A DNA stretch of 64,000 nucleotides from an uncultured Alphaproteobacteria bacterium (GTDB lineage Bacteria > Pseudomonadota > Alphaproteobacteria > HIMB59 > GCA-002718135): the NCBI GenBank assembly GCA_902593125.1, contig CACJGU010000002.1, positions 4,808-68,807 on the forward strand. The letters run 5' to 3'. A program made the position numbers and the translations under genes. Positions 4,754 to 42,544 of this stretch are shown piece by piece (the stretch's first letter is position 1; each line of letters starts with the position of its first letter). Below the pieces are notes generated by a model, which was given only the letters and a program-made list of their open reading frames with translations, made no database searches and was not told where the DNA came from.

Positions 4754-4824
4754 GTATTTTTCCTTTTAGTATATCTTACGCAAATAGTTAAGAATGTTTA
4801 AAATATATATAAACTAGCACTAAT

Positions 4825-26960: not shown

Positions 26961-27014
26961 TATTAGTTTACTATAAACTATTTTGAATATATTTTTCCTA
27001 AATAATTAATAACA

Positions 27015-27623: not shown

Positions 27624-27694
27624 TTTTAAAAAAAATATTTGTAATTTATAGATTTCAATTATCGATATTTTTAATGAAAATTATTTTTATTTAT

Positions 27695-28462
27695 TTAAAT
27701 ACTATTTTTATTACACAAATAATTCCATGCCTCACCACTCCTAATTTCTTCGACCGTCCATTGTTCATAAGCCAAATTATAAAAAGCTGAGTAATTAATT
27801 TCATTTTTTTCAATATCATCTAAATTGGAAACATTGCATAAGGTTGGATTTGTAAAATATGCTGGCACACCTTCAATCATTGCTAAAAAACCTGCTGTCG
27901 AATGATTACTTACAAATGCCCATGCATTTTTTAACAACTCATTTAATGGTATTTTAGATGATCTATTATGAATAATAACTTTTCTATCTGTAATTTTTTT
28001 TAATTTATTTTTTGTTTCTTTTACCCAATTGTTTAATTTAAAAAAATAAATATCATCAATACTTGGTTCAGATAAAACTATATATTCTCCAGTTTTTCTA
28101 ATATTTTTAATTTCTATACCCATTCTTTCAAATCTGTCTTTAGATTTATTGCCTAATGAATTATGCCAATAATTATTATAAACTATCCTAAAATATCCAT
28201 TGAGATCATTTATTTTTGTTTTATTTTTTTCAAAATTTCTAGAAGATTGTTTAAAATATCCATGATCAATGTAATAAAATTTTTTTGCTTTCTTTAGAGC
28301 TTCGCCTGTACCTCTTAAAAAACCATAGGTAGCTATAGTTTTTGAGAAATCACTAAAATTGTTTACGTGACACATCAGTGATTTAGACCCTAATGCAAAA
28401 TTATGGCATAAAGCTCTATTGACATAATGGTCTGTATAAAGAACAATTGGTAGATCTTGCAT
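27695..28462 (-). CDS. Hypothetical protein (possible GT-B-like transferase)
   Basis: Long ORF with no firm motif. The C-terminal FVSNHSTAGFLAMIEGVP resembles a GT-B nucleotide-sugar binding segment. A decayed fragment of a paralogue lies at 31178-31219. Confidence 0.45.
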   Translation of the reverse strand: MQDLPIVLYTDHYVNRALCHNFALGSKSLMCHVNNFSDFSKTIATYGFLRGTGEALKKAKKFYYIDHGYFKQSSRNFEKNKTKINDLNGYFRIVYNNYWHNSLGNKSKDRFERMGIEIKNIRKTGEYIVLSEPSIDDIYFFKLNNWVKETKNKLKKITDRKVIIHNRSSKIPLNELLKNAWAFVSNHSTAGFLAMIEGVPAYFTNPTLCNVSNLDDIEKNEINYSAFYNLAYEQWTVEEIRSGEAWNYLCNKNSI

Positions 28463-28463
28463 T

Positions 28464-28985
28464 TTATTTCATGGATTTACACAAAACTATAAAATTATTA
28501 GAGCTTGCCCTAAAATGTTCAATGTCAAATCTTTCACAAAGTTTAGGCAACCACCATCTAGCTGGTTTTTGAATTAAATGTGCATTTCTTCCATCGCTTA
28601 ATTTTTTTTGTGCTGCTTTAGTGCCTATTGAAAAATAAGTTAATTTTAGTGTAATATTTTTAATTTCATCCAATACTTCTTCAAGAAATTCATTTTCAAT
28701 ATGTTCCATTACGTCAATACAGGTAACTAAATCAGCAGCCACAGGTTCACCGTACTCAGGAAATACGGGGTCATAAGGAAAATATTCAAATTCTCTAAAG
28801 CCAGAATTTAATAAACCTTTTTGTAAATTCTTTTTACCCGCACCATAATCAGATATTGTTTTTATTTTAGTATTGATCAGTAAATTTTTAATTGTTGTAA
28901 CATGCTGAAGTGATGCTGTTCCATAATTAATATCAGAATGTAATTGCTTTTGTTCTTCAAGGTAATTTTTAGAAATTTTATGCAT
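28464..28985 (-). CDS. Class I SAM-dependent methyltransferase
   Basis: Glycine-rich motif ISDYGAGKKNL and DLVTCIDVMEHI motif. Confidence 0.65.
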   Translation of the reverse strand: MHKISKNYLEEQKQLHSDINYGTASLQHVTTIKNLLINTKIKTISDYGAGKKNLQKGLLNSGFREFEYFPYDPVFPEYGEPVAADLVTCIDVMEHIENEFLEEVLDEIKNITLKLTYFSIGTKAAQKKLSDGRNAHLIQKPARWWLPKLCERFDIEHFRASSNNFIVLCKSMK

Positions 28986-29071
28986 GTACTATTAAAATCT
29001 ATCTATAAATTATAGCACAAAAAACTTCAACGGGTAGCATATTACAAAAATTTGATATAGGATAAATCATT

Positions 29072-29668
29072 ATGTTTTTAACAGAAAAATTACTATTCAT
29101 CCATATTCCAAAGAATGCAGGATCTTCAATGGTTTATCTTTTAGAAAAAAATTTTTCAGGCAGGAAAGATTTTGATATTGATACTCACTCAACTTTTGAT
29201 TTATTTAAAAAAAAATATCTAGATTTATGTAAAAATAAGACTTCTTTTTGTTTAATCAGAAATCCTTTTTGTAGATTTGTAAGTATATATAGATTCTTTA
29301 ACAGAGAAATAAAATTAAGAAAATGGTTTGGTCAAGATTTTTTAAAAGTAATGGAAAAAATTGACAGTTTTGAAAAATTCATTGAAAATTTTGAATTTCC
29401 AAAAAAGGCCTGGGGAGAAAACAACCTTTATACCAATCAAAATGTTTGGGCAAATAATATTGATTATGTATTTAAAATTGAAGAACAAAATAATTTAAAA
29501 GATTTTTTTAGAAAAAATAATATTTTGGGTGAATTACCTTTAATAAATAATAGATCAGTGCCATCGTGGCAAAATAAAATGTACAGAGATTATTATAATT
29601 CTAATACAAAAAAAATTATTCAAAAGAAATTTAGAGTTGATTTAGAAATATATCGATATAGTTTTTAA
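29072..29668 (+). CDS. Sulfotransferase family protein (Sulfotransfer_2-like)
   Basis: N-terminal FIHIPKNAGSS and IRNPFCRFVS motifs. Confidence 0.6.
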   Translation: MFLTEKLLFIHIPKNAGSSMVYLLEKNFSGRKDFDIDTHSTFDLFKKKYLDLCKNKTSFCLIRNPFCRFVSIYRFFNREIKLRKWFGQDFLKVMEKIDSFEKFIENFEFPKKAWGENNLYTNQNVWANNIDYVFKIEEQNNLKDFFRKNNILGELPLINNRSVPSWQNKMYRDYYNSNTKKIIQKKFRVDLEIYRYSF

Positions 29669-29704
29669 GAACTTAAAAGACAAAAGGGAGTTTGTGGGAG
29701 TTAA

Positions 29705-29755
29705 TGGAGTGAGTGAAAGGATTCAGGCCCTCGACTTCAACCTTGGCAAGGTTGC
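29705..29755 (-). repeat. Decayed copy of the 3' 51 nt of tRNA-Gly (outermost att remnant)
   Basis: TGGAGTGAGTGAAAGGATTCAGGCCCTCGACTTCAACCTTGGCAAGGTTGC: 44/51 identical to 42470-42520, with all 7 mismatches in the first 23 nt. Confidence 0.85.
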
Positions 29756-29830
29756 CGGGTACGAATGATTTATAATTTCCCTCAATTTATATGGAATAAT
29801 TTTAAAACAAATTTACTTTTCGTAATCAAA

Positions 29831-29848
29831 GTGTCCCCAATGGGTCCC
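29831..29848 (+). promoter_or_regulatory. Arm doublet, TGTCCCC class (module D, tRNA-distal arm)
   Basis: GTGTCCCCAATGGGTCCC. The two copies are 11 nt apart and lie 76 nt inside the repeat core. Confidence 0.55.
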
Positions 29849-29944
29849 AAGTAGAGAGATGGCTGAGCTATTAAAAGAAACAATCTTGCAAATCAATAAA
29901 GAGGTAAGTTCTTAGTGTTTTAAAGTCTCACTTTATCCTAATTA

Positions 29945-30772
29945 CTAAATATAATTAAAATACTTCATTAATGGTTGTAAATTATTATCTATAATTTGAA
30001 CCTGTGTGTTGGATAAAATATCTTTCCATTGATTTAATTTTCCTGATCTAAAAAATTTGGAATGTCTTGTAGCCTCATCAAAACCATTTTGGTTTTCTAA
30101 TGTTCTTAGATTATTAAAATTTGTATTTTGTATTATTTGATCAATTTGCTGGTCACTTAAGTCTATATTTAATTTGTGTATTTTGTTTAAAAATTCCTTT
30201 ATATTTAATACAATTTCCTTTGGATTTAATTTCAAATCTTCATACTTTATAATCAATCTTGGTACAGTATTATAGTTTAGCCATGATTGAACATGAAGAT
30301 CCCATGTTGAAATTAGTTCCTGAGCACCATGTGTCTTTGTCGATAAGTTTTTATTAAAAACAACATGATTTATAGTTTCGTCTAAACTTTTTCCGCTAAA
30401 ATTTTTGAAAGATACAACAATATCTCTTGGATCTCTTACGATATATATAAAACCTGCGTTTACAGTTTCGTTTGTAAATTTTTTATGTCTCACACTATGG
30501 GTTTTAAATATATTTAAATGATTTGATTTGTTATTTAGTATTTTTTGGCACTCAATAATATTTTGCGACACCCAATCAAAATGCAAAATATTATTGTCAG
30601 AATAGATTTTATTTTCAAATTTTTTAAAGTTTTTTTTAATTGATAATAATGGTATTGACTTTAAGGTTTTTAGACTGAACTCGTTATCAAAATTATAAAG
30701 GTTTCCAATTATAGCTCTTATCCATGTATTGCCAGATTTAGGATATGAAGCCAAAAAAATATTTTTAAACAC
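29945..30772 (-). CDS. Sulfotransferase-domain protein (PAPS-dependent type)
   Basis: SYPKSGNTWIR (5'-PSB loop) and VRDPRDIVVS (3'-PB) motifs. Confidence 0.8.
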   Translation of the reverse strand: MFKNIFLASYPKSGNTWIRAIIGNLYNFDNEFSLKTLKSIPLLSIKKNFKKFENKIYSDNNILHFDWVSQNIIECQKILNNKSNHLNIFKTHSVRHKKFTNETVNAGFIYIVRDPRDIVVSFKNFSGKSLDETINHVVFNKNLSTKTHGAQELISTWDLHVQSWLNYNTVPRLIIKYEDLKLNPKEIVLNIKEFLNKIHKLNIDLSDQQIDQIIQNTNFNNLRTLENQNGFDEATRHSKFFRSGKLNQWKDILSNTQVQIIDNNLQPLMKYFNYI

Positions 30773-30934
30773 TAAAAAATATTTAGAAAAATAATTTTAA
30801 TTTAATATTCTAAATTTAAATATTTATTTTTTTTAATAAATATAATTATTAATTTAAAAAATTTATATTTGGTAATTAAATTAGTTATTAAATTTTGTTT
30901 AAATTCAAGGTATTATACTGTTTTGATATTTGAA

Positions 30935-30953
30935 GTGTCCCCCAATTGTCCCC
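30935..30953 (+). promoter_or_regulatory. Arm doublet, TGTCCCC class (module D, tRNA-proximal arm)
   Basis: GTGTCCCCCAATTGTCCCC. The copies are 11 nt apart and lie 37 nt from the repeat core at 30990. Confidence 0.55.
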
Positions 30954-30989
30954 GGAGATTTTAAAATAATATGAATTTGGGAGATTTAT

Positions 30990-31040
30990 TGGAGCGGGCG
31001 AAGGGATTCGAACCCTCGACTTCAACCTTGGCAAGGTTGC
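30990..31040 (-). repeat. Perfect copy of the 3' 51 nt of tRNA-Gly (att core)
   Basis: 51/51 identical to 42470-42520. Confidence 0.95.
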
Positions 31041-31110
31041 CATGTACAATTGAGATCGGCCTTTTCCTAAAAAAACTATATCAAATTATCCCATAAAGTT
31101 AAGAGCGAAC

Positions 31111-31129
31111 TGTCGGAGAAGTGTCGGAC
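31111..31129 (+). promoter_or_regulatory. Arm doublet, TGTCGGA class (module C, tRNA-distal arm)
   Basis: TGTCGGAGAAGTGTCGGAC, copies 11 nt apart. GAACTGTCGGAGAAGTGTCGGA is identical to 41772-41793. Confidence 0.55.
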
Positions 31130-31177
31130 AAAGAACGTAAAAAATAAAAAAGATTCTCATTTCATTTCATTACTTGT

Positions 31178-31219
31178 CTATTGCTCATAAGCTGAATTAT
31201 TAAAAACGCTGTAATTAAT
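31178..31219 (-). pseudogene. Decayed 3' fragment of a paralogue of the 27695-28462 gene
   Basis: The minus-strand translation INYSVFNNSAYEQ* aligns with INYSAFYNLAYEQW near the C-terminus of the 255-aa protein. About 80% nucleotide identity over about 50 nt with 27748-27800. An in-frame stop lies just upstream. Confidence 0.5.
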
Positions 31220-31250
31220 TTAGTATTTTAACAAATTTTAATATATATAT

Positions 31251-32162
31251 TTGATTATTATGCTTGAATTTGACAGTAAAAAACAAGAGTTTTATTTTAA
31301 TAGAGTTCTATTGGATAAATTAAGTTTTAGAAATGGATCTAACGAAATTGATACACTAAAAATTTCTAAAGAATATTTGTTTACAGACCAAATTAAAAAG
31401 AGCAATTTTTACATATTTAAAAATTTTTTAGATAACGATGTTTCAAATAGGCTAAAAAAATATTTTTCTAGTGAAGAAACTTATAAAAGCTTTATTAAAT
31501 CTTCTAATGGATCTTCAAGACTTTTTTTTTATTTAAATTCTCCATTTTTTTATCCAAAATTTTTACAAAGTCTAATTTTGAAATGTATGATTTTTAAAAA
31601 TATGATTTATTATCATCATGATTATTATCATAGTTATTGTTTAAAATATAATTTAAATCCATCCGACTTTGAAAAAGTAGCAAAAAATCAAATTCTGCAT
31701 TCTTGGCAAAGTATATACTGGTATAAAAATAATTGTAAATTTGAAAAACATATTGATAGTTATGGAGAATTAGCCTGTTTTTTAATATTATCTGAACGTG
31801 GTAGAGATTATAAGAAAGGTGGATTAGAAGTGGTTTATGATGATGGTTCTACAAAAGATTTAGATGCTGAATATCAAATTGGAGACTTAGTTTTTTTAGA
31901 TCAGTCTAAAGTATATCATCAGGTTAATAAGATTGAGCATAATGATGATCAAATTGGAAGATTACAATTATATATTCCAACTATTCCACCAAATTACATT
32001 AACAAAGTATTGTATTTTGAAGATCATTCCCATAATCCATATTTTACAAGTAACGACATTAGTTTAGGTGAACGTATTAAAAATATTCTAAAATCTTATA
32101 TAGTAAAAGAAGATGTTCATTATAGTAGACAAAATCCAAGATTAAATGATCACATTCTTTAA
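31251..32162 (+). CDS. Hypothetical protein, possible 2OG-Fe(II) oxygenase fold
   Basis: Long ORF with a candidate HxD...H triad (KHIDS ... VYHQV). The start could be TTG 31251 or ATG 31260. Confidence 0.4.
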   Translation: MIIMLEFDSKKQEFYFNRVLLDKLSFRNGSNEIDTLKISKEYLFTDQIKKSNFYIFKNFLDNDVSNRLKKYFSSEETYKSFIKSSNGSSRLFFYLNSPFFYPKFLQSLILKCMIFKNMIYYHHDYYHSYCLKYNLNPSDFEKVAKNQILHSWQSIYWYKNNCKFEKHIDSYGELACFLILSERGRDYKKGGLEVVYDDGSTKDLDAEYQIGDLVFLDQSKVYHQVNKIEHNDDQIGRLQLYIPTIPPNYINKVLYFEDHSHNPYFTSNDISLGERIKNILKSYIVKEDVHYSRQNPRLNDHIL

Positions 32163-32296
32163 AATTTTTGTAGTTCAATGAATTTATCAATTAATAATAT
32201 ATTTTTATATTTCTTATTAACCTCGTACCAAATAAGGAATTATTGAACACGAAGTGCAACTATATTACAACCAAAAGAGGTAAGGGGGTGAAAATT

Positions 32297-32346
32297 TGGA
32301 GCGGGCGAAGGGATTCGAACCCTCGACTTCAACCTTGGCAAGGTTG
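32297..32346 (-). repeat. Perfect copy of the 3' 50 nt of tRNA-Gly (att core)
   Basis: 50/50 identical to 42470-42519; diverges at 32347. Confidence 0.95.
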
Positions 32347-32402
32347 GGGTTAAGTGCTGATTAAGCCCCGCATATAAACAATTTCTCCCACATATTTCTC
32401 TT

Positions 32403-32420
32403 TGTCACAACTGTGTCACA
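32403..32420 (+). promoter_or_regulatory. Arm doublet, TGTCACA class (module B, int-proximal arm)
   Basis: TGTCACAACTGTGTCACA, copies 11 nt apart. Ends immediately before the int RBS AGGAG (32421-32425). Confidence 0.6.
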
Positions 32421-32432
32421 AGGAGATATGAA

Positions 32433-33377
32433 ATGGCAACAATACGAAGAAGAAATGGTAAATGGCAAATCCAAATAAGGATAAGAAATTATGGAGCTAC
32501 AAGTAAAACATTTATTAATAAAAAAGATGCATTGCAATGGGGAAGAGAGAAAGAGATAGAACTTCAAAGATGTGCTATAAAATATAAACCACAAAAATAT
32601 CCACTAACAAGAAAACTAATTGAAAAATATATTAATAATATTTCTATAAAAAAGAGAGGTTATGAATTTGAGAAGTATTGTTTTAATAATTGCTTAAGAG
32701 CTTCTTTTTCTAACTTGCCTGTAAATCAGATTTCAACCAAACACTTATCTGAATATAGAGATTTAAGATTAAAAAAAGTTAAGGCATCTACATTTCTAAG
32801 AGAACTAAATTTAATTAGACATTTCTTTAATATTTTAAAAAGAGAATGGGGTTATGAAATTGATAATCCTTGTAACAATTTAACCAAACCAAAAGTTTTT
32901 CAAAAAAGGGAAAGAAGATTAACTGAATATGAATATAATTATTTAGTTAAAGGAAACTATTCTCAGAACACTCTTAGAAATATAATTGAGATAGCAATTG
33001 AAACTGGGATGAGACGTGGTGAAATTTTAAATATAAAAAAAGAACATATCAAAACAGATACGCTATTAATACCCATAACAAAAAACGGTCATCAAAGAAT
33101 AATTCCTCTTACTGAGAGAGCTATATATATTTTAAATAAATCAAAACTTCCTTTTTCTATGTCTGTAAATGCAGTCAGACTAGCTTGGGAAAGGTTAAAA
33201 AATAAAGCTAACATTAAAGACTTACATTTTCATGATTTACGCCATGAAGCTATCTCAAGGTTCTTTGAAAAAGGATTAAGTATTCCCGAAGTAGCCTTAA
33301 TTTCTGGACATAAGGATGTGAGAATGCTTTTTAGATATACTCATCTCAAAGCAGAAGATATATTGAAGAAGTTATGA
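32433..33377 (+). CDS. Tyrosine site-specific integrase
   Basis: Catalytic signature GMRRGE ... HFHDLRHEAIS ... GHKDVRMLFRYTHL (R, HxxR, H, Y). The N-terminal RRRNGKWQIQIRIRNYGATSKTF resembles small beta-sheet arm-binding domains. Confidence 0.92.
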   Translation: MATIRRRNGKWQIQIRIRNYGATSKTFINKKDALQWGREKEIELQRCAIKYKPQKYPLTRKLIEKYINNISIKKRGYEFEKYCFNNCLRASFSNLPVNQISTKHLSEYRDLRLKKVKASTFLRELNLIRHFFNILKREWGYEIDNPCNNLTKPKVFQKRERRLTEYEYNYLVKGNYSQNTLRNIIEIAIETGMRRGEILNIKKEHIKTDTLLIPITKNGHQRIIPLTERAIYILNKSKLPFSMSVNAVRLAWERLKNKANIKDLHFHDLRHEAISRFFEKGLSIPEVALISGHKDVRMLFRYTHLKAEDILKKL

Positions 33378-33458
33378 GGAAATTTTTGTCATTAATGATT
33401 TGTTTGTATAAAGTTAATTTAAGAAATTAATATATTCTTTTAAGTAAAATTTAATTAA

Positions 33459-36020
33459 CTAACCTAAAATTTTTCTAATATCTTTTTCCCACTCATCTTG
33501 GAACAGAAGTTTAAACACAACTTGTTCTTTTCCTTTAACTTTCAAATGTCCAATATTTTCAATATTTTCAATATTTTCAAAAAAACATTTGTTTATTAAG
33601 TCAAATAGCTTTTCTTTATATAAAGTATCATCATTTTTTAAAAAATTACCCTTAGTCTCTATAAAAAATATCTTTGATTTGTTATTATTATTCATTTTTA
33701 ATAAAAAATCCGGATAAATTTTGTTAGCTCTCCATCCTTTAATTGAATAATCCTCATTATTTACAGATAATCTATGCCACCATTTTATAGCTTTACTTTT
33801 ATTAATATAAGAAGCTACGAGATATTCATAATTATTATAATTTGATTTATATTGAGGTTGATAAATATTTTTATTAAAATTTAATGGATATTCATCATGA
33901 TTTTTTAAAGTAGTAAGATTCTCAACAAGGGTCCAATTGAATTTATAAAATTTTTTTTCTAATAATTTAAAATTTATAATCTTTTTTTCAATTTTTTTTC
34001 TAAATATTTTTTCAGACTCTTTTAGAAACCATTTGTAAAAATCATTCTTGATGACATTAACAATAAAAACTGAGTTTTTATTTATTGTTTCTTCATTAAT
34101 ATAATTAACTTTTAAATTATTAATAACTTCATAAATTATTCTACTTGCTTGCCATGGGTTATGCACTTTATCAATTAATTGACTTGCCATTAGAGAAATT
34201 TCAAAATCTTTATCAATGTTTTTATCTTGTAATGTTTTTTGACTAAAAAAATCAAAATCTGATTTTCCTTTAATATCAGATTTCAAATCAATTTTAATAA
34301 AGGAATCTTCAGGGTTGTGATTTGATAAATTCAATTCATTAAAATTTTTAAAAGAATAATTATCTATTTTTATATCAGGAAGAATGTCTCGATAATAATC
34401 AAATTCTCTAACTTTATTGTAATAATTTACTGTTAATTTTGGAATTATTATTGATTTTTTGTATTCATTACTTAATTTCTGAACAACCCTTTTTTTAATA
34501 TTAGCTTCTCCGTTAATTAAATTAATATTATCATCAATGTCATTTAAGCCTTCTTCCTCTAAACCTTTTTTAACACCTAAAATAGCCTCTCCAACATCCA
34601 CTGAATTACAATATACATAGCTTTCATTTAATTCTTTAATTTTATATCTTTGTGCATAAGGTTGTCTCAATATTCTTCCAACAAATTGAGTTAAAGATGT
34701 TTGATTTTTAGTTTTTGATAATATTGCTAAAACGTAAGCAAATGGACAATCCCATCCTTCTTTAAGAGCATCTTTGGTAATTATATATTTAACATTAGAT
34801 GTTTTGCTAAGCAAATTAAGATTTGAAATTTCATTAATTTCTGAAAGTTTAATTTTAATTTCATCTTCATTAATATTTAAATTTTGAAGTAAATATTTTT
34901 TTACATCTTCAACATGATTATAGGTGCTCTGTTGTTTTTTAGTTTCAACTTTAATAAGCAATATTGGTCTTATATAAGTATTATTAATTTTATATAATTT
35001 TTCTGCTGATTTGTTTAATTCACGTATTTTTTTTACTGAATGATTCAAAGTATTTTTCCAATTTGATTCTTCATAAGTACGCAGATTAATAGGCAGCTTA
35101 ATCATCTCTTCATTTTTTAATGAGACACCACTAATTTCAGATATAACATTGCTTAAATTGGAAGGGGTTGCTGATAGCTCTAATATAAATGAGGGATTAA
35201 AGTTGTTTATTGTTTCTGTAGCTAAATTACTTTTTGCCCTATGTCCTTCATCAATAATAACTATCGGTCTAATTAATTTGAATACATTTCCAACTGAATG
35301 CTTAATATTTAATCCTTTAACAACATCTATGTTATTTAAATCTGTCAAATCTCCTACATCCAAGTTTGTTATTTCATCTATTAATTTTTTATTGGCAAGA
35401 TAGTCGTCTTCAATTGGAAAAAAACTTGTATGTGAACTCGAGTCTCTAAATAGTTTTAAAAATTCTTTTGTTTTTCTGTTACTAGACTGCATCATTAGAA
35501 TCATTATACACAAATTCTTTTCAACATCTTCTTTCGTAAAAGAATCTGTTTTCTCAAGAATTATTGTTTTCCCCCCACTAACTCTGTCAACTACTTGTCT
35601 GTATGCATGTTCTTTGTTTCTTAAATTAATTAATGTTTGTGAATAAATAGACTCACTTGGAACAAGCCATAATATAAATCCATTATTTTTTTTAAAATAA
35701 TCTTGGTTAATAAATTTAATTGAATGTAATGCTAAATAAGTTTTGCCTCCTCCAGTAGGTACTTTGAAACATATATTGGGAATTTTTCTTTTTATACCAT
35801 CACTTCTATTTTTATATTCAATGGTTTTTACAGGAATTTTAGATTTTAAGTTTTCCCAAGCTTGACTGCAATAATCACTTTTTTCTGGGTGGATGGGTGT
35901 TTTATTTTTTTTAATTTGAAAATTGTAATAATCAAACTGTTCATCTTTTATTGTTGCTAATTCTTTTAAAAAAAAGTCCAAATCATTTAATATATTATTT
36001 TGATAATCTTTAATTTCCAT
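33459..36020 (-). CDS. res: Type III restriction enzyme, Res subunit (SF2 helicase plus PD-(D/E)xK nuclease)
   Basis: Helicase motifs VPTGGGKT, IIDEGHRA, ELSATP and QFVGRILRQ. C-terminal nuclease motif YPDF...FFIETKG. The start abuts the mod stop. Confidence 0.88.
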   Translation of the reverse strand: MEIKDYQNNILNDLDFFLKELATIKDEQFDYYNFQIKKNKTPIHPEKSDYCSQAWENLKSKIPVKTIEYKNRSDGIKRKIPNICFKVPTGGGKTYLALHSIKFINQDYFKKNNGFILWLVPSESIYSQTLINLRNKEHAYRQVVDRVSGGKTIILEKTDSFTKEDVEKNLCIMILMMQSSNRKTKEFLKLFRDSSSHTSFFPIEDDYLANKKLIDEITNLDVGDLTDLNNIDVVKGLNIKHSVGNVFKLIRPIVIIDEGHRAKSNLATETINNFNPSFILELSATPSNLSNVISEISGVSLKNEEMIKLPINLRTYEESNWKNTLNHSVKKIRELNKSAEKLYKINNTYIRPILLIKVETKKQQSTYNHVEDVKKYLLQNLNINEDEIKIKLSEINEISNLNLLSKTSNVKYIITKDALKEGWDCPFAYVLAILSKTKNQTSLTQFVGRILRQPYAQRYKIKELNESYVYCNSVDVGEAILGVKKGLEEEGLNDIDDNINLINGEANIKKRVVQKLSNEYKKSIIIPKLTVNYYNKVREFDYYRDILPDIKIDNYSFKNFNELNLSNHNPEDSFIKIDLKSDIKGKSDFDFFSQKTLQDKNIDKDFEISLMASQLIDKVHNPWQASRIIYEVINNLKVNYINEETINKNSVFIVNVIKNDFYKWFLKESEKIFRKKIEKKIINFKLLEKKFYKFNWTLVENLTTLKNHDEYPLNFNKNIYQPQYKSNYNNYEYLVASYINKSKAIKWWHRLSVNNEDYSIKGWRANKIYPDFLLKMNNNNKSKIFFIETKGNFLKNDDTLYKEKLFDLINKCFFENIENIENIGHLKVKGKEQVVFKLLFQDEWEKDIRKILG

Positions 36021-37721
36021 TTATTTAACAAAAACTTTATGTATGGCATATGGAAGTTGACAAAAAATTATATTAAATTCATCTAGTTGTTTTTGTGACA
36101 TAAATTTTGAAGTTGCAAAAACTAATTTTTTCAATTTACTACTATTTTTTATAATTTCAGCTTTTTCATAACTTAATGCTGAGTCATTACTTCTTAAGAA
36201 TGTAATATCTGGTTTGTATATTAAAAAAATTTCATAAAAATTTGTTTTTCCAATAAAATATTTTTGTTGATTCTTTACTGATTTTTCCAAAGAAACTCCA
36301 GTTGCAGTATAGAAAACATATCTTGATAATGATTCATAAGATGGAAGATTATTTCCTCTCAGAATTGAGTCTATATTAAATTCTTTACCTAACTTAAAAT
36401 AGGAAAAGCTTTTATTGTAGCCTTTTTTAAGAATCTTATTTTTTGCAGAAGGGACCCCTTTGTTAATTAATCTTACTCTTTCAGCAGTAAGATTATTTGC
36501 ATAATCTTCCATTTCTACAAGAATATATTTTCTATTACCGTTATCTTCATGATTTAAATCCATAACCGCGTGAGCTGTGGTTCCACTACCAGCAAAAGAA
36601 TCAAGAATTATATCGTTTGATTGATTTCTAGTAGATATTCTGAGACATTTTTTAATTAAATCTATAGATTTTGGGTAATCAAAAGGCATGTGTCCAAATA
36701 TTTCAGATAATAACTCTTTACCATTCTCATTGTTAATGGATTTGTCAGTCCATAAAGCTTTTTCTTTGGTTGTTGCTAAACTAGAATTCTTATATAAATA
36801 ATCTTTTCTGAAAACTCTCCAATTACCTGTGCTAGCGTATTTTGCGAATAACAAAGAAGAGTTTTTTAAAACTTTTTCCTGACCCCAAGTCCAACAACCT
36901 TCTTCACCTTTAGAGTTTAGAGGCAAGATAGGAATATTAAATTCTTTATTTTTTTTCAAAGATATTTGATTATTTTTTTTATTTACATAAATTGGGAAAA
37001 ATAAATTGGGTCTATTTTTCCTATTAAAAACTGGATTTCTGTTTCTTAGTTCCAAAGGTCGATATTTACCTTTTTTATCTTCATACTTATAATCGGATTG
37101 TTGAGTTTCATTTTTTTCAACTTCAAATAAACTACTATTATTTATATCTTTAACATAAGTTAATACATACTCGTGAGTTTTTGCCAAAAATTTATCTAAT
37201 GTTCTTCCTCTAGGATTTAATTGCACTGTAATCTGAGAGACAAAATTGTATTCTCCAAATATTTCATCCATTAACAATCTTAAATTTGCTATTTCATTGT
37301 CATCAATTGAAATAAATATTGCACCATCATCTGATAAAAGTTCATGCAATAACTTTATGCGTGGGTACATCATGCAAAGCCATTTATCATGTCTTTCTAA
37401 ATCTTCTCTATCTACTGGATTAGCACTATTTTTTAACCACTCTCTTATCAATGGCGAATTTACATTATCATTATAACACCAACCTTCATTTCCTGTATTA
37501 TATGGAGGGTCAATATAAATACATTTAATTCTACCTGAATAATTTGGAAGCAAAGCTTTTAATCCATGAAGATTATCTCCTTCAATAATCAAATTGTCTT
37601 CAATTTTAGTTTCTTTATTTTTTGGAAATGATTTTTTTTTATCTACAACCAATTCTCTAAAAGGAAGTACATAGTGATGAGAACTAATAAATTGTTTACC
37701 TTTAAAATCAATTTTTGGCAT
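36021..37721 (-). CDS. mod: Type III DNA methyltransferase, Mod subunit (beta-class N6A/N4C)
   Basis: Motif IV IYIDPPYNTG lies about 300 aa N-terminal of motif I DSFAGSGTTAHA, the order typical of Type III Mod. Confidence 0.9.
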   Translation of the reverse strand: MPKIDFKGKQFISSHHYVLPFRELVVDKKKSFPKNKETKIEDNLIIEGDNLHGLKALLPNYSGRIKCIYIDPPYNTGNEGWCYNDNVNSPLIREWLKNSANPVDREDLERHDKWLCMMYPRIKLLHELLSDDGAIFISIDDNEIANLRLLMDEIFGEYNFVSQITVQLNPRGRTLDKFLAKTHEYVLTYVKDINNSSLFEVEKNETQQSDYKYEDKKGKYRPLELRNRNPVFNRKNRPNLFFPIYVNKKNNQISLKKNKEFNIPILPLNSKGEEGCWTWGQEKVLKNSSLLFAKYASTGNWRVFRKDYLYKNSSLATTKEKALWTDKSINNENGKELLSEIFGHMPFDYPKSIDLIKKCLRISTRNQSNDIILDSFAGSGTTAHAVMDLNHEDNGNRKYILVEMEDYANNLTAERVRLINKGVPSAKNKILKKGYNKSFSYFKLGKEFNIDSILRGNNLPSYESLSRYVFYTATGVSLEKSVKNQQKYFIGKTNFYEIFLIYKPDITFLRSNDSALSYEKAEIIKNSSKLKKLVFATSKFMSQKQLDEFNIIFCQLPYAIHKVFVK

Positions 37722-37757
37722 AATGAATTTAAACTTAATATAATTTAATTATTAATA

Positions 37758-38003
37758 TCAATAATTATAATGAAATTTCTTATATTTTAACAGCCATTCC
37801 TTTTTAGCTTCTTTATAAGTAATACCATCCCATCTCTCTCCAAGATGAGAAGGGATATATTCATCACAATTTGCACAATGTATTTGTTGAAGTACATAGG
37901 ACCATGGACTTGAGGCTTCACCAGTAACGCTCCAATCTGTTGATACGCAAAGATTGCCAGCAACCTCAGTTGCACCGCATTCTGGACATTTGAAAGAATT
38001 CAT
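37758..38003 (-). CDS. Small zinc-ribbon protein, unknown function
   Basis: 81 aa with CPEC ... CANC. Lies 36 nt upstream of mod on the same strand and looks visibly G+C-richer than mod/res. Confidence 0.55.
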   Translation of the reverse strand: MNSFKCPECGATEVAGNLCVSTDWSVTGEASSPWSYVLQQIHCANCDEYIPSHLGERWDGITYKEAKKEWLLKYKKFHYNY

Positions 38004-38232
38004 TTTTTCTCCTTTAGCTACTTGTTTTATGTCCCGGCAATTAGAGTATCTAAATCAGGACAATTACATAATATCATAATAAGTATTTTTAACAATCTTG
38101 ATAAGACCATAATTCGTGCTTATATTAATACTGTAAGGCTACTATTGATATTCGAAGTTCTCATTATTTTTCTACTTTTAAAAATTACCTCCGCCTTACT
38201 CAAAAAAATCAAAACAGTAACAGAAAGGACCA

Positions 38233-38703
38233 ATGGGCGACCTACTAAACTTTAACGACCACATTGATAAAACACAAAACAAACGACGATATCTTGGCTA
38301 TGAAAAAGGAAAAGTCTTAGAAGAAACCATCAAAGGACTCATAGCAAAAATACCTGATATACCTGATGAAACCATTATCAACTACTTTGCCAACATAGTT
38401 AAAGGGGGAATTCCTGTGATAGATGATAAACCTTTTCATACAAAATATGTCTGGGCAGAAAACTGTCTAAAGTATTCATCCGAAGAAATTCAAGAAGCAG
38501 CAACTTCTTATATGTTTAAAAACAAAAACAACCATAAATTATTGTACCATCTTTCCCTGCTTATTTATCTCTCTCTTTATTTCTTTGATAAAGATGTAAA
38601 ATCTTTTTATAGGATTGCTCCTCAAGATTATGAAAAATGGGGAATTAGACTTCTTGATAAAAGTATAGAATTTAAAAACAACGTTAGGGATGGGAGTTTT
38701 TAG
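38233..38703 (+). CDS. Hypothetical protein (156 aa)
   Basis: ATG preceded by GAAAGGA. No recognisable motif. One hydrophobic stretch (LLYHLSLLIYLSLYFF). Confidence 0.55.
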   Translation: MGDLLNFNDHIDKTQNKRRYLGYEKGKVLEETIKGLIAKIPDIPDETIINYFANIVKGGIPVIDDKPFHTKYVWAENCLKYSSEEIQEAATSYMFKNKNNHKLLYHLSLLIYLSLYFFDKDVKSFYRIAPQDYEKWGIRLLDKSIEFKNNVRDGSF

Positions 38704-38770
38704 GTTAACTCATGGGTTTATTGAGGTATATTTTCATTTATAAGCATTTGATATAGAAATTATACGAATA

Positions 38771-38808
38771 AGTTATCCACGTTATAAAAAGTTATTAACG
38801 CTATAAAA
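38771..38808 (+). repeat. Tandem 19-bp direct repeat upstream of the 102-aa gene
   Basis: AGTTATCCACGTTATAAAA / AGTTATTAACGCTATAAAA (16/19 identical). Confidence 0.7.
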
Positions 38809-38906
38809 TAGATTCAAAAAATGTGCGTTGAAGAAGTTCTCCTCATCATCATATTAGATAAATAAATCGTTAATGATTTTTTTTATCTGCAACCAAAGGA
38901 GATTAT

Positions 38907-39215
38907 ATGCAGAAAGAGATTAATACAAACTCTCTACATTACAAAATGCAAGATTGTTTTGATATCGTTTGGAATACTGGCGATGAAATAGAGCGTGATT
39001 GGAGTGTTCAAATAGCAACCAGTATGTTCATGGAATACTGTGAAGAATTAGAGTACGTTTCACTGACAGATTCTGCTCACTTGTATTCAGAATTAACAGG
39101 TATTTTTTCTACCGATACACCATGGTCATTTACAAGATATTATTGTTATCAATTCTTAGAGAATTACAAAAAAATAGTAGATGGAAATGAACCAATAAAC
39201 TCAACATTGCATTAA
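38907..39215 (+). CDS. Small strongly acidic protein (102 aa), unknown function
   Basis: RBS AAGGAG lies 6 nt upstream of the ATG. About 17 D/E against about 6 K/R by count. Confidence 0.6.
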   Translation: MQKEINTNSLHYKMQDCFDIVWNTGDEIERDWSVQIATSMFMEYCEELEYVSLTDSAHLYSELTGIFSTDTPWSFTRYYCYQFLENYKKIVDGNEPINSTLH

Positions 39216-39221
39216 ATAATT

Positions 39222-39237
39222 GGGGGCTTAGGCCCCC
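39222..39237. terminator. GC-rich hairpin between convergent genes (bidirectional terminator candidate)
   Basis: GGGGGC-TTAG-GCCCCC lies between stop 39215 (+) and stop 39241 (-). Such a G/C run is exceptional in this AT-rich window. Confidence 0.6.
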
Positions 39238-39240
39238 TTC

Positions 39241-40071
39241 TCACATCTTTGCTGCTTGTTCAATATAGGCACAATTCTCACAATACGGATTTCTATGAGG
39301 TGCTTTGCTAGAATCCAAAACTGATTTCATTTCTAAAATTTTTTCTTTTATCCAACTTGTATTGGTTTCATAATCAACAAGGGTAATAGCAAAATCCATT
39401 TTTGCATCAAATCTATCTGGTGATTTTTCTCCATTGCAAACCATAAAATAGGAAATATCTGAAACTTTAAACCCCATCTCTCTTAAAATATATACGTATA
39501 TATCCATCTGCATTTTATAACCTTGATGGTATTGGCTCGATAAGTAATATTCTTTTTCAACTGCTATTTTTGTTGATTGTGCTTTATAGTCAGCAACAAC
39601 TAATTCCTGTGTATCAAGATTAAACCAGATATCATCTACACCTCCATGAAGTATTAAATTAGTTTCTTTATCATGATAAGAAATTCCACCCGTTAGTGAA
39701 TTTCTCCATTTATCGATATCGTCATGCTCAAAAGGAATAAAATTTAAATTATAATTTCTAAAAATAGGGTGTGCTTCTTTTCGAGCTCTATAATAATCAA
39801 ATTCTTTTTTTAACAAATCATCAACAGTAGTATTAAGAGACCATCCAGGCATACTAGGCTCTTGTAATCCCCTTACTCTATCTAGGTAAAAACATCTTTG
39901 ACAATCCATAAAGTTTGAAAATTTAGAACGACTAATTTTAAATTCATTCTTTTGTCCAGGTTTGTATATTGAAGTAGGTCTTGTTCGTAGACCTTTAGCC
40001 TCTGCAAATTCACCTTTTGAGTTTCTTTTAATACTTACCATCTCTAATTGACTATACCACCATTTACCCAA
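39241..40071 (-). CDS. PD-(D/E)xK nuclease, Cas4/RecB-like, with four Cys (probable Fe-S cluster)
   Basis: GGVDD ... VVADYKA (D...D-x-K) and QMDIYVY (QxxxY) motifs. Cys pairs CQRC (N-terminal) and CENC (C-terminal). The start is uncertain (TTG 40071 or internal ATG 40041). Confidence 0.7.
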   Translation of the reverse strand: MGKWWYSQLEMVSIKRNSKGEFAEAKGLRTRPTSIYKPGQKNEFKISRSKFSNFMDCQRCFYLDRVRGLQEPSMPGWSLNTTVDDLLKKEFDYYRARKEAHPIFRNYNLNFIPFEHDDIDKWRNSLTGGISYHDKETNLILHGGVDDIWFNLDTQELVVADYKAQSTKIAVEKEYYLSSQYHQGYKMQMDIYVYILREMGFKVSDISYFMVCNGEKSPDRFDAKMDFAITLVDYETNTSWIKEKILEMKSVLDSSKAPHRNPYCENCAYIEQAAKM

Positions 40072-40102
40072 AGGTTAAGTGGGTTATTTTTACTAGTCTG
40101 AA

Positions 40103-40612
40103 CTAAGCTGATTTATTAAAACCAAATTGTCTCTGAATTTCATCCATTGTCATTTCTTTTTTTATACTCGTATTAAAAGTTGATTCAATAGACTCCCAAA
40201 TACCATCTCTTGGTCGTTGAATGTGTGTTACATTGCTTACTGTTTTCCCTTTTTCGCTGGTCTTTTGTTTTACACGAATAAATGTTTTCGTATAAAATAA
40301 CTCCTCTGGATGTGGAATTTCTGAAAGAGATTTAATTGGGTCGTATTTTTCCTTACTTATTAAAGCTCTTGTAACTTTGACAATTTTACTCTTTGAGCTC
40401 TTCATTTTTGAATTATTACAAACAGCTACTGCAAACATTGGATTGTCTTCTTCGTCCAGTATTGGCTCATTTGTATTCAAATCAAGAATAGCAAATTTAA
40501 ATACCATTCTTTGTCCTAGAGGAAATCTTTCAAGGTCTAGACTAATTAAGACAGAAAAGTATTCTCCATCTGGTGTGTTATTACCGTAATGATTTAATTG
40601 AAATAATCGCAT
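40103..40612 (-). CDS. Hypothetical protein (169 aa), upstream partner of the nuclease
   Basis: ATG with GGAGAA upstream. Same strand as the nuclease gene and 31 nt upstream of it. No recognisable motif. Confidence 0.55.
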   Translation of the reverse strand: MRLFQLNHYGNNTPDGEYFSVLISLDLERFPLGQRMVFKFAILDLNTNEPILDEEDNPMFAVAVCNNSKMKSSKSKIVKVTRALISKEKYDPIKSLSEIPHPEELFYTKTFIRVKQKTSEKGKTVSNVTHIQRPRDGIWESIESTFNTSIKKEMTMDEIQRQFGFNKSA

Positions 40613-40821
40613 TGTTAAACGTTCTCCAAGTTGAGTTTGTATACTGATAATTATGAGAATAAATTAAAAGTAAGTCGCTTAACAAACTTTAGTTATATTT
40701 AATTATATATATCACATATTCTTAAAAACTATGAATGTTATTTATTATTTTTATTAAATATTTATTACCTGTGTACCTAGTGTTGTAGTTAATAATCTAT
40801 AAAGAAATAATATAAAAAGAT

Positions 40822-40927
40822 AATAAGGTAATAATGCATAAGGGTAATAAATAAGAAATTTAATAAGGTAAAATTTTAGTAATCTATAATGGTATAAATC
40901 TATTAATGTACTAAGGTAATAAGGTGG
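40822..40927 (+). repeat. Iteron-like array of TAAGGTAA(T)AA motifs
   Basis: Copies at 40824, 40839 (extra G), 40864, 40888 (TAATGGTATAA), 40912 and 40920. The GG cores at 40843, 40867, 40891 and 40915 are exactly 24 nt apart. An inverted copy TTATTACCT lies at 40762-40770. Confidence 0.7.
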
Positions 40928-41061
40928 TTCTTAGTGCCTGTTTTATATAGAATTTGGGCCGCCTTAACACCTTGTAAACATAGTATCTTGTGGAATTAAG
41001 CACCCTGCTCATGTTATAAAATAAGACATGCGAGAATTTGTAACATTATTAGGTCTTAATG

Positions 41062-41358
41062 TTATTCATAAACATCATTTTTAGAGTAATATAATTCATC
41101 GTTAATTATAAACTCTGGGTCATTATCTTCAAATCTCTCAACAAAAAGATTATCACACTCACAACATACATAGGTATAATTGTAATCTCTTTTATTTACT
41201 TTCTTTAAGTTAACCAATCTTCGAAACTCTTGTTCATCTGGATTTCTAAGATAGTGAGATTGACATTCTGGACAGTGTACACCTGAGTAATAGTCATAAT
41301 GTTCTTTGACGTGCTTTCGGGCTCTTAATTTTAGTTTTTGTTTTTGATAGTTGTGCAT
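41062..41358 (-). CDS. Small zinc-ribbon protein (98 aa), unknown function
   Basis: CPEC ... CCEC, with a basic N-terminus and an acidic C-terminus. No obvious RBS. Confidence 0.5.
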   Translation of the reverse strand: MHNYQKQKLKLRARKHVKEHYDYYSGVHCPECQSHYLRNPDEQEFRRLVNLKKVNKRDYNYTYVCCECDNLFVERFEDNDPEFIINDELYYSKNDVYE

Positions 41359-41520
41359 ATAAATTATTTTGCAATTACAATATTAAAAATGAATAATCAA
41401 GAAAAGCAAATCCTAATAATAATTGCCTCCTCATATTTAATAAAAATAAAAAATAATTAAATTTGTAGTTTCCACTGTAAACCAGATACTCAAGCACGTT
41501 GCGAGGTATATATATACCCT

Positions 41521-41589
41521 ACCCCCATAGGACCCCTGCACTACCCCTTTTGGAAACAACATTTTTTATTGTGTCACACTCTTGTCACA
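41521..41589 (+). promoter_or_regulatory. Module B tRNA-proximal arm: three 11-nt-phased ACCCC repeats plus a TGTCACA doublet
   Basis: ACCCC at 41521, 41532 and 41543. TGTCACA at 41572-41578 and 41583-41589. The core repeat starts at 41658. Confidence 0.6.
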
Positions 41590-41657
41590 ACAAGATTATA
41601 AATATAAAAAACTTTTAAAAAACTTAACAGACAAAAGAGAGAGTTTGTGGGGTTTAT

Positions 41658-41708
41658 TGGAGCGGGCGAAGGGATTCGAACCCTCGACTTCAACCTTGGC
41701 AAGGTTGC
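41658..41708 (-). repeat. Perfect copy of the 3' 51 nt of tRNA-Gly (att core)
   Basis: 51/51 identical to 42470-42520. Confidence 0.95.
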
Positions 41709-41775
41709 CATGTACAATTGAGATTAGGTATTTAAACAGTTTTCTGACTTTAATATGATTGTTTATATCTTGAAC

Positions 41776-41794
41776 TGTCGGAGAAGTGTCGGAG
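41776..41794 (+). promoter_or_regulatory. Arm doublet, TGTCGGA class (module A, tRNA-distal arm)
   Basis: TGTCGGAGAAGTGTCGGAG, copies 11 nt apart, 68 nt inside the core. Confidence 0.55.
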
Positions 41795-41803
41795 GAAAAT
41801 ATT

Positions 41804-42337
41804 TTATCTTGGATAACGAATTGGACAAATCGCAGTTGACCTTACAGTAATTGCTTTAGGTCCACCTACTTCATTATTATAAGTACAAACTTTCGTGAGC
41901 CCAGTAACGTTATGTGTGTGACTGATTGGACATATTGCAGTTGATCTAACTGTTAAAGCTGAAGGTCCTGACGGTCCATTATAATAACAAACTTTTGTAA
42001 GCCCTACATTTGTTGATAGGTTTGTTGTGTTTGAGTAGGTTGGTTGTTGACTCATTGCTGTTCCCATATTTATTAAAGCTTGATTTAATCTTTTTTTTCG
42101 AAGACCTGCTGCAATATAAGGTGAGCAGTCTATTCCTCTTCTTTGGATAGAATCCTCTCTATAGCCTTGATTGATATTATAATCTGGCAGAGCATAATAA
42201 CTAGTACATATTTTTTTTGCTGATTGTGAGTCATAATATCTAGCTGCTTCTTGTGGAGACATGCAAGATTGTAGAATTATTAAACTTACTAAAACCGTTA
42301 TGGTTTTTGAAATTATACTTAAAGAATAAAAATTCAT
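41804..42337 (-). CDS. Putative lipoprotein with a tandem internal Cys-containing repeat
   Basis: Signal peptide ending ILQSC (lipobox-like). Two about 30-aa units: GLTKVCYYNGPSGPSALTVRSTAICPI and GLTKVCTYNNEVGGPKAITVRSTAICPI. Confidence 0.65.
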   Translation of the reverse strand: MNFYSLSIISKTITVLVSLIILQSCMSPQEAARYYDSQSAKKICTSYYALPDYNINQGYREDSIQRRGIDCSPYIAAGLRKKRLNQALINMGTAMSQQPTYSNTTNLSTNVGLTKVCYYNGPSGPSALTVRSTAICPISHTHNVTGLTKVCTYNNEVGGPKAITVRSTAICPIRYPR

Positions 42338-42428
42338 TATTAGACAATATTTTATTATGAAAAATTGTTAAAACTTTAATTTAAGAAATGATCAAATATT
42401 GTGGAAATTAAAAAAGCTATACCGATAT

Positions 42429-42447
42429 TGTCGGAGAAATGTCGGAA
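42429..42447 (+). promoter_or_regulatory. Arm doublet, TGTCGGA class (module A, tRNA-proximal arm)
   Basis: TGTCGGAGAAATGTCGGAA, copies 11 nt apart, 23 nt from the tRNA 3' end. Confidence 0.55.
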
Positions 42448-42469
42448 AAATTAAGAAAATTATAATTTT

Positions 42470-42544
42470 TGGAGCGGGCGAAGGGATTCGAACCCTCGAC
42501 TTCAACCTTGGCAAGGTTGCGCTCTACCCCTGAGCTACGCCCGC
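42470..42544 (-). tRNA. tRNA-Gly (anticodon GCC)
   Basis: 75-nt cloverleaf on the minus strand: GCGGGCG acceptor, GCTC/GAGC D-stem, anticodon loop TTGCCAA, T-loop TTCGAAT, encoded CCA. Confidence 0.95.

Follow-up and report, generated by a model that had tools for sequence, protein, structure and literature searches.

We analyzed a window of 64,000 nt from an uncultured alphaproteobacterium (positions 4,808 to 68,807 of contig CACJGU010000002.1, assembly GCA_902593125.1; G+C ~27%), a SAR11 (Pelagibacterales) genome, and conclude that the island bordering its tRNA-Gly(GCC) gene very probably arose through serial insertion of small circular elements, by site-specific recombination, into this tRNA gene. 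The intact gene (42470-42544, - strand; found by ARAGORN, 70.9 bits with the Rfam tRNA model) is the only tRNA gene of the window, and its 3' 51 nt (42470-42520, taken as + strand sequence and located by pattern match) constitute the attachment core. As read from the sequence, the core starts one base ahead of the anticodon stem and takes in this stem and its loop, the variable loop, the T arm and the acceptor strand, up to the encoded CCA. Partial copies of the core, all in the same orientation, separate the modules that we call A to E: pattern matching gave exact 51-mers at 41658-41708 (+, B/A junction) and 30990-31040 (+, D/C junction) and a copy at 32297-32347 (+, C/B junction) that matches at 50 of 51 positions and differs in the last base, and alignment gave a degenerate copy at 29705-29755 (+, E/D junction) with 7 mismatches, all of which fall in the first 23 nt, that is, on the side of the tRNA 3' end. 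The number of 51-mer matches expected by chance is 0 (100 shuffles), and a local-alignment scan of the window found no other copy, degenerate ones included, beyond these five (the intact gene counted). The window scan and the loci retrieved with a 50-mer of the core agree in tying the repeat to the tRNA locus rather than to a dispersed repeat. A preliminary description of this DNA, made from the letters alone, had reported three mismatch-free repeats, and these are exact (that at the C/B junction over 50 nt, 32297-32346); its fourth, mismatched repeat and its module sizes of 761 (A), 9311 (B), 1256 (C) and 1234 bp (D), which follow from the copy coordinates, were all confirmed. We rejected an origin of the repeats by tandem duplication or slippage, as the contents of the modules are unrelated.

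A recombinase is present in one module, as the preliminary description had stated. Module B (32348-41657, 9.3 kb; delimited by the copies, the arms and the integrase) contains an int gene (32433-33377, + strand) that encodes a 314-aa tyrosine integrase (Pfam Phage_integrase, E 5e-25; PHROG 1) whose beta-sheet N-domain (residues 1-50) is predicted to bind the arms and which also has a core-binding and a catalytic domain. Its catalytic set, consisting of the R194/R195 pair, K217, H267, R270, H293 and Y302, is invariant in an alignment of 30 homologues. In the AlphaFold2 (AF2) model (pLDDT 81), a three-stranded sheet and a helix at the N-terminus are followed by the core-binding and catalytic domains, and the best Foldseek match of the model is full-length lambda Int (1z1b, 339 columns). 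In the window, as in all close relatives, the distance from the end of the tRNA-Gly copy to the int start downstream is 86 nt. The family comprises more than 120 clusters at 54% identity or above in marine metagenomes; the metagenome contigs with close homologues are ordinary fragments, informative on cargo and not on circularity. Modules A, C and D contain one sizeable open reading frame (ORF) each, and tblastn found no integrase remnant in any of the three even at E <= 10.

In attP sites of the lambda/P2 type, tandem direct repeats one helical turn apart lie on both arms and go together with an arm-binding N-domain of the integrase. We found pairs arranged in this way in B. The left end of the module consists of the 5' part of a pseudo-tRNA (32348-32371, from the sequence) and a TGTCACA pair (32403-32420) that overlaps the ribosome-binding site of int, and the conserved right end (41465-41657) includes a second TGTCACA pair (41572-41589). 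Every B-type integrase (67-100% identity; 67-93% in the relatives, L119-L125) is preceded by TGTCACAAC-NN-TGTCACAAGGAG directly 5' of its ATG, again overlapping the int ribosome-binding site, and complete B-type elements have their second TGTCACA pair 65-90 nt from the right-hand copy. More distant integrases adjoin tRNA-Met, Val or Thr and have a tandem pair in the same place, of the same or a different sequence (GTCAAA, GATGCA, GGCACA, GGGTACA or TTGTCCTT); judged from these sequences, the arm motif changes with the integrase lineage. From the position of the pairs and the structural model we infer that the N-domain would bind them.

The arm pairs are not confined to integrase-bearing elements. 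The preliminary description had noted arm-like repeats in the three single-gene cassettes, and we found pairs in all three: TGTCGGA on both sides of A (41776-41793 and 42429-42446), GTGTCCC on both sides of D (29831-29848 and 30935-30952), and a mismatched set in C, with TGTCGGA on the left (31111-31128) and GTGCAAC/TTACAAC on the right (32254-32271). In a set of 42 modules located between tRNA-Gly copies in SAR11 single-cell and metagenome-assembled genomes (41 after one duplicate was dropped), 31 of 41 modules have a 7-mer pair with 11-bp spacing at both ends, and the 7-mer is the same at both ends in 30 of these 31, against a mean of 7.3 and a maximum of 15 in a permutation null. A pair of this kind occurs in 5.5% of random 85-nt segments of the window. 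The pairs fall into at least 12 motif classes: TGTCACA, TGTCGGA, GTGTCCC, GTGGGAC, TGACGCG, GGCTAC, TGTAGCG, TTAACACC, TGGAGCG, TCGACAC, ACTGCGC and GAGACGC. The TGTCACA class is mostly integrase-bearing, and no integrase-bearing member of the TGTCGGA, GTGTCCC or GGCTAC classes was seen among the SAR11 modules. The preliminary description had compared the three cassettes to cis-mobilizable or decayed elements, but action of the B integrase on its neighbors, in cis or in trans, is unlikely, because the TGTCACA arms of B differ from TGTCGGA (A and the left arm of C) and GTGTCCC (D).

The integrase-less modules, delimited by their copies and arms, carry different cargo. Module A (41709-42469), the tRNA-proximal and presumably youngest one, encodes a 177-aa protein (41804-42337, -) that matches no family; its N-terminus is lipoprotein-like, and it contains two repeats with Cys. 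Module C (31041-32296) encodes a 303-aa protein (31251-32162, +) with a weak match to 2OG-Fe(II) oxygenases, and because its arms are mismatched it is probably a chimera of two cassettes; elsewhere we found only its first 110 nt, in L060. Module D (29756-30989) encodes a 275-aa sulfotransferase (29945-30772, -; Pfam Sulfotransfer_1, E 1.3e-31) and contains a decayed 5' fragment of tRNA-Ser at ~29854-29875, recognized from the sequence. Beyond D there is probably a fifth, older module, E (~28983-29704, its boundary drawn from sequence features), which would have lost its distal tRNA copy. It begins with a 17-nt P-arm relic (CATGTACTATTAAAATC) at 28983, contains a Sulfotransfer_2 ORF found by profile search (29072-29668, +), and ends with a segment (29662-29704) resembling the B-type right end; apart from the 17-nt relic, no further degenerate tRNA copies or arm relics were found to the left of 29705. 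Thus the four modules of the preliminary description stand as A to D, with E as a probable addition to them.

Related genomes carry different subsets and orders of the modules, and occupied and empty sites occur side by side. First, related single-cell genomes include a pair of loci with and without an insertion: L098 and L124 are collinear (88-89% identity), but only L124 has a 6.0-kb integrase element, which is bounded by two full tRNA-Gly copies. In L121, L124, L125 and L403 the attP includes a whole or near-full second tRNA-Gly at the position of the B pseudo-tRNA, so that tRNA-Gly(GCC) is present twice in some cells. None of the related genomes proved to lack precisely B. Second, a scan of metagenomes for the order expected of a B-type attP (right-arm end, core, left arm with the TGTCACA pair) found one contig, VMHT01103010.1 (L403). 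Its ends overlap by 127 nt, which leaves a unit of 7445 bp with a single core, arranged as P'-core-P. The integrase it encodes is 90% identical to that of B, and the 244 nt of its right end are 93% identical to window 41465-41708, while its cargo is unrelated to that of B and no replication module was found in it. From this layout the contig is more likely an excised circle than a tandem duplicate. Third, B-type elements range from 5.0 to 10.4 kb and have in common only ~1.1 kb with the copy and the integrase and ~0.25 kb at the right end. The integrase region is 92-93% identical between genomes and the core DNA flanking these elements ~84-85%, and their cargo includes other restriction-modification systems, a kinase/PP2C/VWA set, an HNH-helicase and DUF4268. 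We consider B to be an intact integrative element that is probably still mobile.

Cassettes A and D also recur in other arrays. The A protein is identical on 12 metagenome contigs, and the cassette, at 99% nucleotide identity or above, adjoins the tRNA wherever the contig reaches the tRNA. It has four different distal neighbors, namely a B-type end (the window and L423), a TATTGAA-class end (L421), a TGGAGCG-class end (L424) and an unrelated gene (L420 and L422). Cassette D is present in eight other SAR11 loci (72-90% identity) at different array positions, adjacent to the tRNA in L060 and L063, and its arms are 80-89% identical compared to 76% for its ORF. In the single-cell genome L426 (GCA_902635635.1), which is 94.6% identical to the window from purH to 28469, D and its two bounding copies are 98.4% identical to those of the window; window 29048-29691, which holds the ORF of E, and module C are absent, and a different B-type element directly follows D. 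The copy of L426 equivalent to 29705-29755 is perfect. Since the D-distal copy is perfect in this genome without E, the mismatches at 29705 belong to the E side and do not reflect uniform ageing. The reading of the decayed copy as a sign of age, made in the preliminary description, thus agrees with the rule that degenerate copies are always distal to perfect ones in SAR11 arrays but does not account for this particular copy.

These observations are consistent with the following scheme. Each element would carry as its attP a tRNA copy that reaches from the anticodon stem-loop to the CCA, sometimes a whole or a decayed tRNA, with an arm pair on either side. A lambda-type integrase would occupy the arm pairs with its N-terminal domain and the half-sites in the anticodon stem with its core-binding domain, and would recombine the attP with the tRNA. 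How far the identity block reaches, together with the fact that a class of integrases uses anticodon loops, points to the anticodon loop as the most likely place of the crossover; lambda integrative recombination is reportedly the subject of Landy, and the sublocation classes of integration sites in tRNA genes are said to go back to Williams 2002. The segment brought in by the element would regenerate the tRNA and displace the old 3' segment to the far side, so newcomers would enter beside the tRNA and earlier modules would be pushed outward. The serial entry into a functional tRNA proposed in the preliminary description is in keeping with the varying module subsets and orders, the empty sites and the distal position of degenerate copies in other genomes. 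Recombination between any two copies would delete the DNA between them. Modules A, D, probably E, and the chimeric C, which lack an integrase, would have to be moved by cognate integrases acting in trans, or be exchanged and deleted through homologous recombination between the identical 50-nt copies. We hold trans-mobilization of A, C and D by unseen cognate integrases as a tentative proposal, with a chance somewhat below even, and give about the same weight to recombination-driven exchange of cassettes that had been integrated once; that A is a purely immobile relic is somewhat less likely than either.

Several results weigh against serial site-specific integration. No integrase preceded by a TGTCGGA or GTGTCCC pair was found in ~60 SAR11 loci and two pattern scans, and the trans-acting enzymes for A, C and D are therefore hypothetical. 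One of the scans, of genome contigs with TGTCGGANNNNTGTCGGA, used a pattern that proved non-specific, with unrelated taxa among the matches listed; the other (core end, N55-85, TGTCGGA pair) returned two known SAR11 loci only and no integrase-bearing TGTCGGA element. Module B has no excisionase, replication or transfer function detectable in Pfam and PHROG searches, and an exact-protein look-up returned no database record identical to its integrase or to the proteins of C and E. The apparent circularity of VMHT01103010.1 could reflect a tandem duplication. The divergence of D between genomes (72-90% identity) resembles that of the flanking core DNA (83-87%), and since D is no more conserved than this DNA, it gives no sign of recent transfer. 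Lastly, the patterns of A and D could be explained equally well by homologous recombination with the 50-nt copies and the flanking core genes as anchors.

The last point leads to the alternative that fares best, an additive island in which an integrase made the first copies long ago and modules are now exchanged after DNA uptake by RecA-dependent recombination through the 50-nt copies and the core genes, the arms of A, C and D being relics. We regard this as a serious contender, although on balance improbable. It would fit the large excess of integrase-less modules over integrases (~30 versus 5 in a first scan of the SAR11 loci), the missing cognate integrases for the TGTCGGA and GTGTCCC classes in loci and scans, and the backbone-like divergence of D, and SAR11 islands have been described in such terms (PMC11796062). 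The loss of C and E in L426 looks like precise copy-to-copy deletion, which either mechanism would produce. However, the arms are concordant and those of D are at least as conserved as its ORF, which is unexpected for relics in an AT-drifting genome; A always occupies the tRNA-proximal slot, where an integrase would put a newcomer; and a circular B-type element exists.

It is rather unlikely that A, C and D are instead decayed remnants of integrase-bearing elements, left immobile by deletion of the integrase and inherited only vertically. Such decay does occur, since integrase fragments are present in L066 and L025 and, less clearly, in L121, and integrase-less derivatives exist within the TGTCACA class (L044_m1 and L090_m1); the mismatched arms of C would be expected from a fusion or deletion. 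Yet the lack of any integrase remnant in the three modules argues against it, as does the contrast between the TGTCGGA, GTGTCCC and GGCTAC classes, none with an integrase-bearing member, and the mostly integrase-bearing TGTCACA class. Moreover, the near-identity of A across four array contexts argues for recent movement or exchange.

A graveyard of prophages or phage satellites, of the phage-inducible chromosomal island (PICI) or virion-encapsidated integrative mobile element (VEIME) type, is very improbable. The integrase does belong to the large phage-integrase family, with temperate phages of Ralstonia and Pseudomonas as its nearest cultured relatives (36-39% identity), and satellites of Pelagibacter have been published (PMC9618062). 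Nevertheless, no capsid, terminase, portal, primase/replicase or AlpA-type gene was found in any module, Pfam and PHROGs giving an integrase and a nuclease only, and searches of B with Pfam, PHROG and PADLOC detected no primase, replicase, capsid, terminase, packaging or conjugation gene. Among 2.9 million viral contigs there was no close relative of the integrase (best 34%), and therefore no recognizable viral carrier; the 50-mer core matched one unrelated high-GC viral contig only. Cultured phages showed no pelagiphage link, and no phage record has 28 nt or more in common with the tRNA. An integron or integron-like platform can be practically dismissed: the directional array of short cassettes, which are poor in promoters and mostly hold a single gene, next to a tyrosine recombinase justifies the integron-like look noted in the preliminary description as an analogy, but the recombinase is lambda-like and lies within one module, not at a fixed platform end, and arrays without a nearby integrase exist. 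Moreover, the boundaries are direct tRNA repeats with asymmetric arms; there is no IntI, and inverted repeats resembling attC were not reported where the cassettes meet.

Cis-mobilizable elements (CIMEs) are known from accretion-mobilization at the attachment sites of integrative and conjugative elements (ICEs) in streptococci, where a CIME and its partner ICE have the same attachment specificity and the CIME moves together with the ICE in cis. Modules A, C and D are similar in that they are flanked by attachment sites, lack recombination or transfer genes and are stacked with an integrase element at a tRNA 3' end. They differ from CIMEs in that only the core is shared, the arm motifs being distinct from those of B, and in that B has no conjugation genes. 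The array resembles lambda, P2 and HP1 in its predicted heterobivalent integrase, tandem arm sites about one helical turn apart and an identity block from the anticodon stem-loop to the tRNA 3' end; in contrast to these phages, it is non-phage and minimal (integrase, ~0.35 kb of arms and cargo), has no recognizable excisionase, and includes many units without an integrase. With integron arrays it has in common directional short single-gene cassettes and a flexible gene pool at the population level, whereas attI and a common promoter are missing and the sites are tRNA segments plus arms. An integron, a CIME, a satellite and a prophage each have at least one defining feature that the locus lacks.

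A close parallel comes from Prochlorococcus, for which Hackl et al. describe tycheposons and cryptic integrase-only elements with tandem accretion at tRNAs, degraded integrases and extra partial tRNAs deeper in the island (10.1101/2020.12.28.424599). The common features are a streamlined marine host, a tyrosine integrase, a tRNA at the island border, partial copies, older elements pushed inward and cargo for defence or niche adaptation. The primase, helicase or polymerase replication module given there as the tycheposon hallmark is absent from B, and B therefore resembles the cryptic integrase-only class of the same study. The SAR11 modules are mostly integrase-less single-gene cassettes of 0.5-1.4 kb (26 of 42 modules measure 1.4 kb or less), compared to 4-200 kbp (PMC10872708) or 10-20 kbp (10.1101/2020.12.28.424599) for tycheposons, and class-specific arm pairs are not described in the searched portion of the tycheposon text (10.1101/2020.12.28.424599). 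Partial tRNA repeats have been reported in four SAR11 islands with 'only one integrase' (PMC11796062), an additive island of the Methylophilaceae is marked by tRNA-Lys 3' repeats (PMC10872708), and integrase-associated elements of Pelagibacter occur in vesicles and virus-like particles (PMC11876622). The first two studies concern the same lineage or lifestyle and likewise show tRNA-bounded islands with partial tRNA repeats marking cassettes, but they give 'no canonical mobile genetic elements' and a single integrase, whereas here an intact element, a circular relative, arms and motif classes are resolved.

Accretion at tRNAs is thus not new as a phenomenon, nor is the array rare for SAR11. Among the loci retrieved with the 50-mer, one or more partial copies (up to four) are present in 26 of 62 low-GC (SAR11) loci and in none of 55 high-GC alphaproteobacterial loci. 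The view that such mobile DNA is unusual for this streamlined lineage, expressed in the preliminary description, does not hold in the light of these counts and the published SAR11 and Pelagibacter cases (PMC11796062, PMC11876622). As far as the searched literature shows, the new points are the detailed anatomy of a minimal integrase element that has a circular relative, the fact that ~1-kb integrase-less cassettes predominate, and concordant class-specific arm pairs that change with the integrase lineage.

The locus has the look of a working site-specific system in SAR11, the textbook case of a streamlined genome said to be without mobile elements, whose flexible gene pool is usually ascribed to homologous recombination. 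If cassettes are mobilized in trans, lambda-type parts would have given the most abundant ocean bacteria a capture mechanism convergent with integrons, and the arm motifs, the integrase N-domain and the tRNA-Gly site would serve as handles on the circulation of defence and surface-modification genes. A broader and more speculative extension, which we think doubtful, is a population-wide, integron-like cassette economy in SAR11, in which hundreds of ~1-kb integrase-less single-gene cassettes, with complete attP sites made of a tRNA-Gly core and class-specific arm pairs and with at least 12 arm specificities, would be moved into and out of the tRNA by rare and diverse integrases in trans; these may come from co-resident elements, vesicle-borne circles or phages. 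In that case site-specific, and not only homologous, recombination would be a main source of the SAR11 flexible genome.

The defence cargo of B is a complete type III restriction-modification system (33459-37721, -), as judged from profile matches: an 853-aa Res subunit (33459-36020, -; PADLOC REase_III, E 1.9e-206 over the full profile; Pfam ResIII), to which the sole helicase domain in B belongs, and a 566-aa Mod subunit (36021-37721, -; PADLOC MTase_III, E 1.3e-155; Pfam N6_N4_Mtase). The rest of the cargo (37758-41358) comprises several small ORFs without known function, a PD-(D/E)XK/Cas4-like nuclease identified by profile searches (39241-40071, -) and a 169-aa protein without a family match (40103-40612, -). 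The B-type elements in L119 and L123 also encode the 169-aa protein, at 72-82% identity and in the same place near the right end. L403 lacks this protein, whose gene may be an accessory part of the backbone. The start of an 81-aa zinc-ribbon-like ORF in B is overlapped by a sub-threshold match to the alphaproteobacterial S-adenosylmethionine (SAM) riboswitch (37993-38071, -; 27.2 bits, gathering score 36, E 0.012), which is probably due to chance. The conserved non-coding block at the B-type right end (41465-41560) contains GGTATATATATACC and a C-rich run, CCCTACCCCCATAGGACCCCTGCACTACCCC, which is atypical for a 27% G+C genome. The block is 93% identical in the circular contig L403, whose cargo is different; the conserved right end has no significant fold (z = -0.5), and the block could act as a promoter, provide a site for a host factor or contain an origin.

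The array is flanked on the right by blh-crtY-crtB-crtI and on the left by acs, tdk, rsmB, a heparinase-like gene and purH, and the island therefore runs from purH to tRNA-Gly(GCC), with the array very probably as its active end. Its distal part (25311-29668) encodes a TPR-sulfotransferase, a 2OG-Fe(II) oxygenase, two unknown proteins and the Sulfotransfer_2 protein, functional types that match those of cassettes C and D. Their homologues in other SAR11 genomes are found in shuffled order at 49-67% amino-acid identity, and the genes probably represent old cassettes from which the tRNA copies have disappeared.

Besides the tRNA, the Rfam scan gave only sub-threshold tRNA-like or chance matches. 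The copy at the C/B junction together with the left end of B (32300-32371, -) is tRNA-like at 26.9 bits, against the Rfam tRNA threshold of 29. Weak matches to HPnc0260 at 30883-31028, 41551-41696 and 42364-42508 (+; 41.6-43.2 bits, gathering score 59) probably reflect the repeated tRNA-derived sequence only and no RNA gene. Sequences from tRNA-Ser recur inside cassettes as well: two GTGGGAC-class modules (L010 m1 and L024 m1, positions 91-180) have a full tRNA-Ser(TGA) directly after the left arm pair, and GTGTCCC-class modules, including D, have only a 5' fragment, cut variably near the anticodon stem and followed by the cargo. These sequences may point to a secondary site within cassettes at which integration or replacement takes place.

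A second integrase family was seen once, in L110 (6374-7390, -). This 339-aa protein is 35% identical to the B integrase, is associated with GAGACGC arm pairs, and lies tRNA-proximal in the opposite orientation, reading inward. TGGAGCG-class modules of L121 (5562-5810, -) and L025 (5817-6173) end with an ORF of 82-119 aa, which would be a truncated integrase or else an arm-binding protein in its own right; the 82-aa ORF of L121 matches only the arm-binding integrase N-domain, weakly and below threshold (Pfam Arm-DNA-bind_4, E 5e-4). Finally, modules A, C and D all have their cargo gene directed away from one of the arm pairs, and this pair lies 90-165 nt upstream of the gene start, the same position that the pair has relative to int in integrase-bearing elements. 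The arm region may thus supply the cassette promoter, although with three cases only this could be a coincidence.

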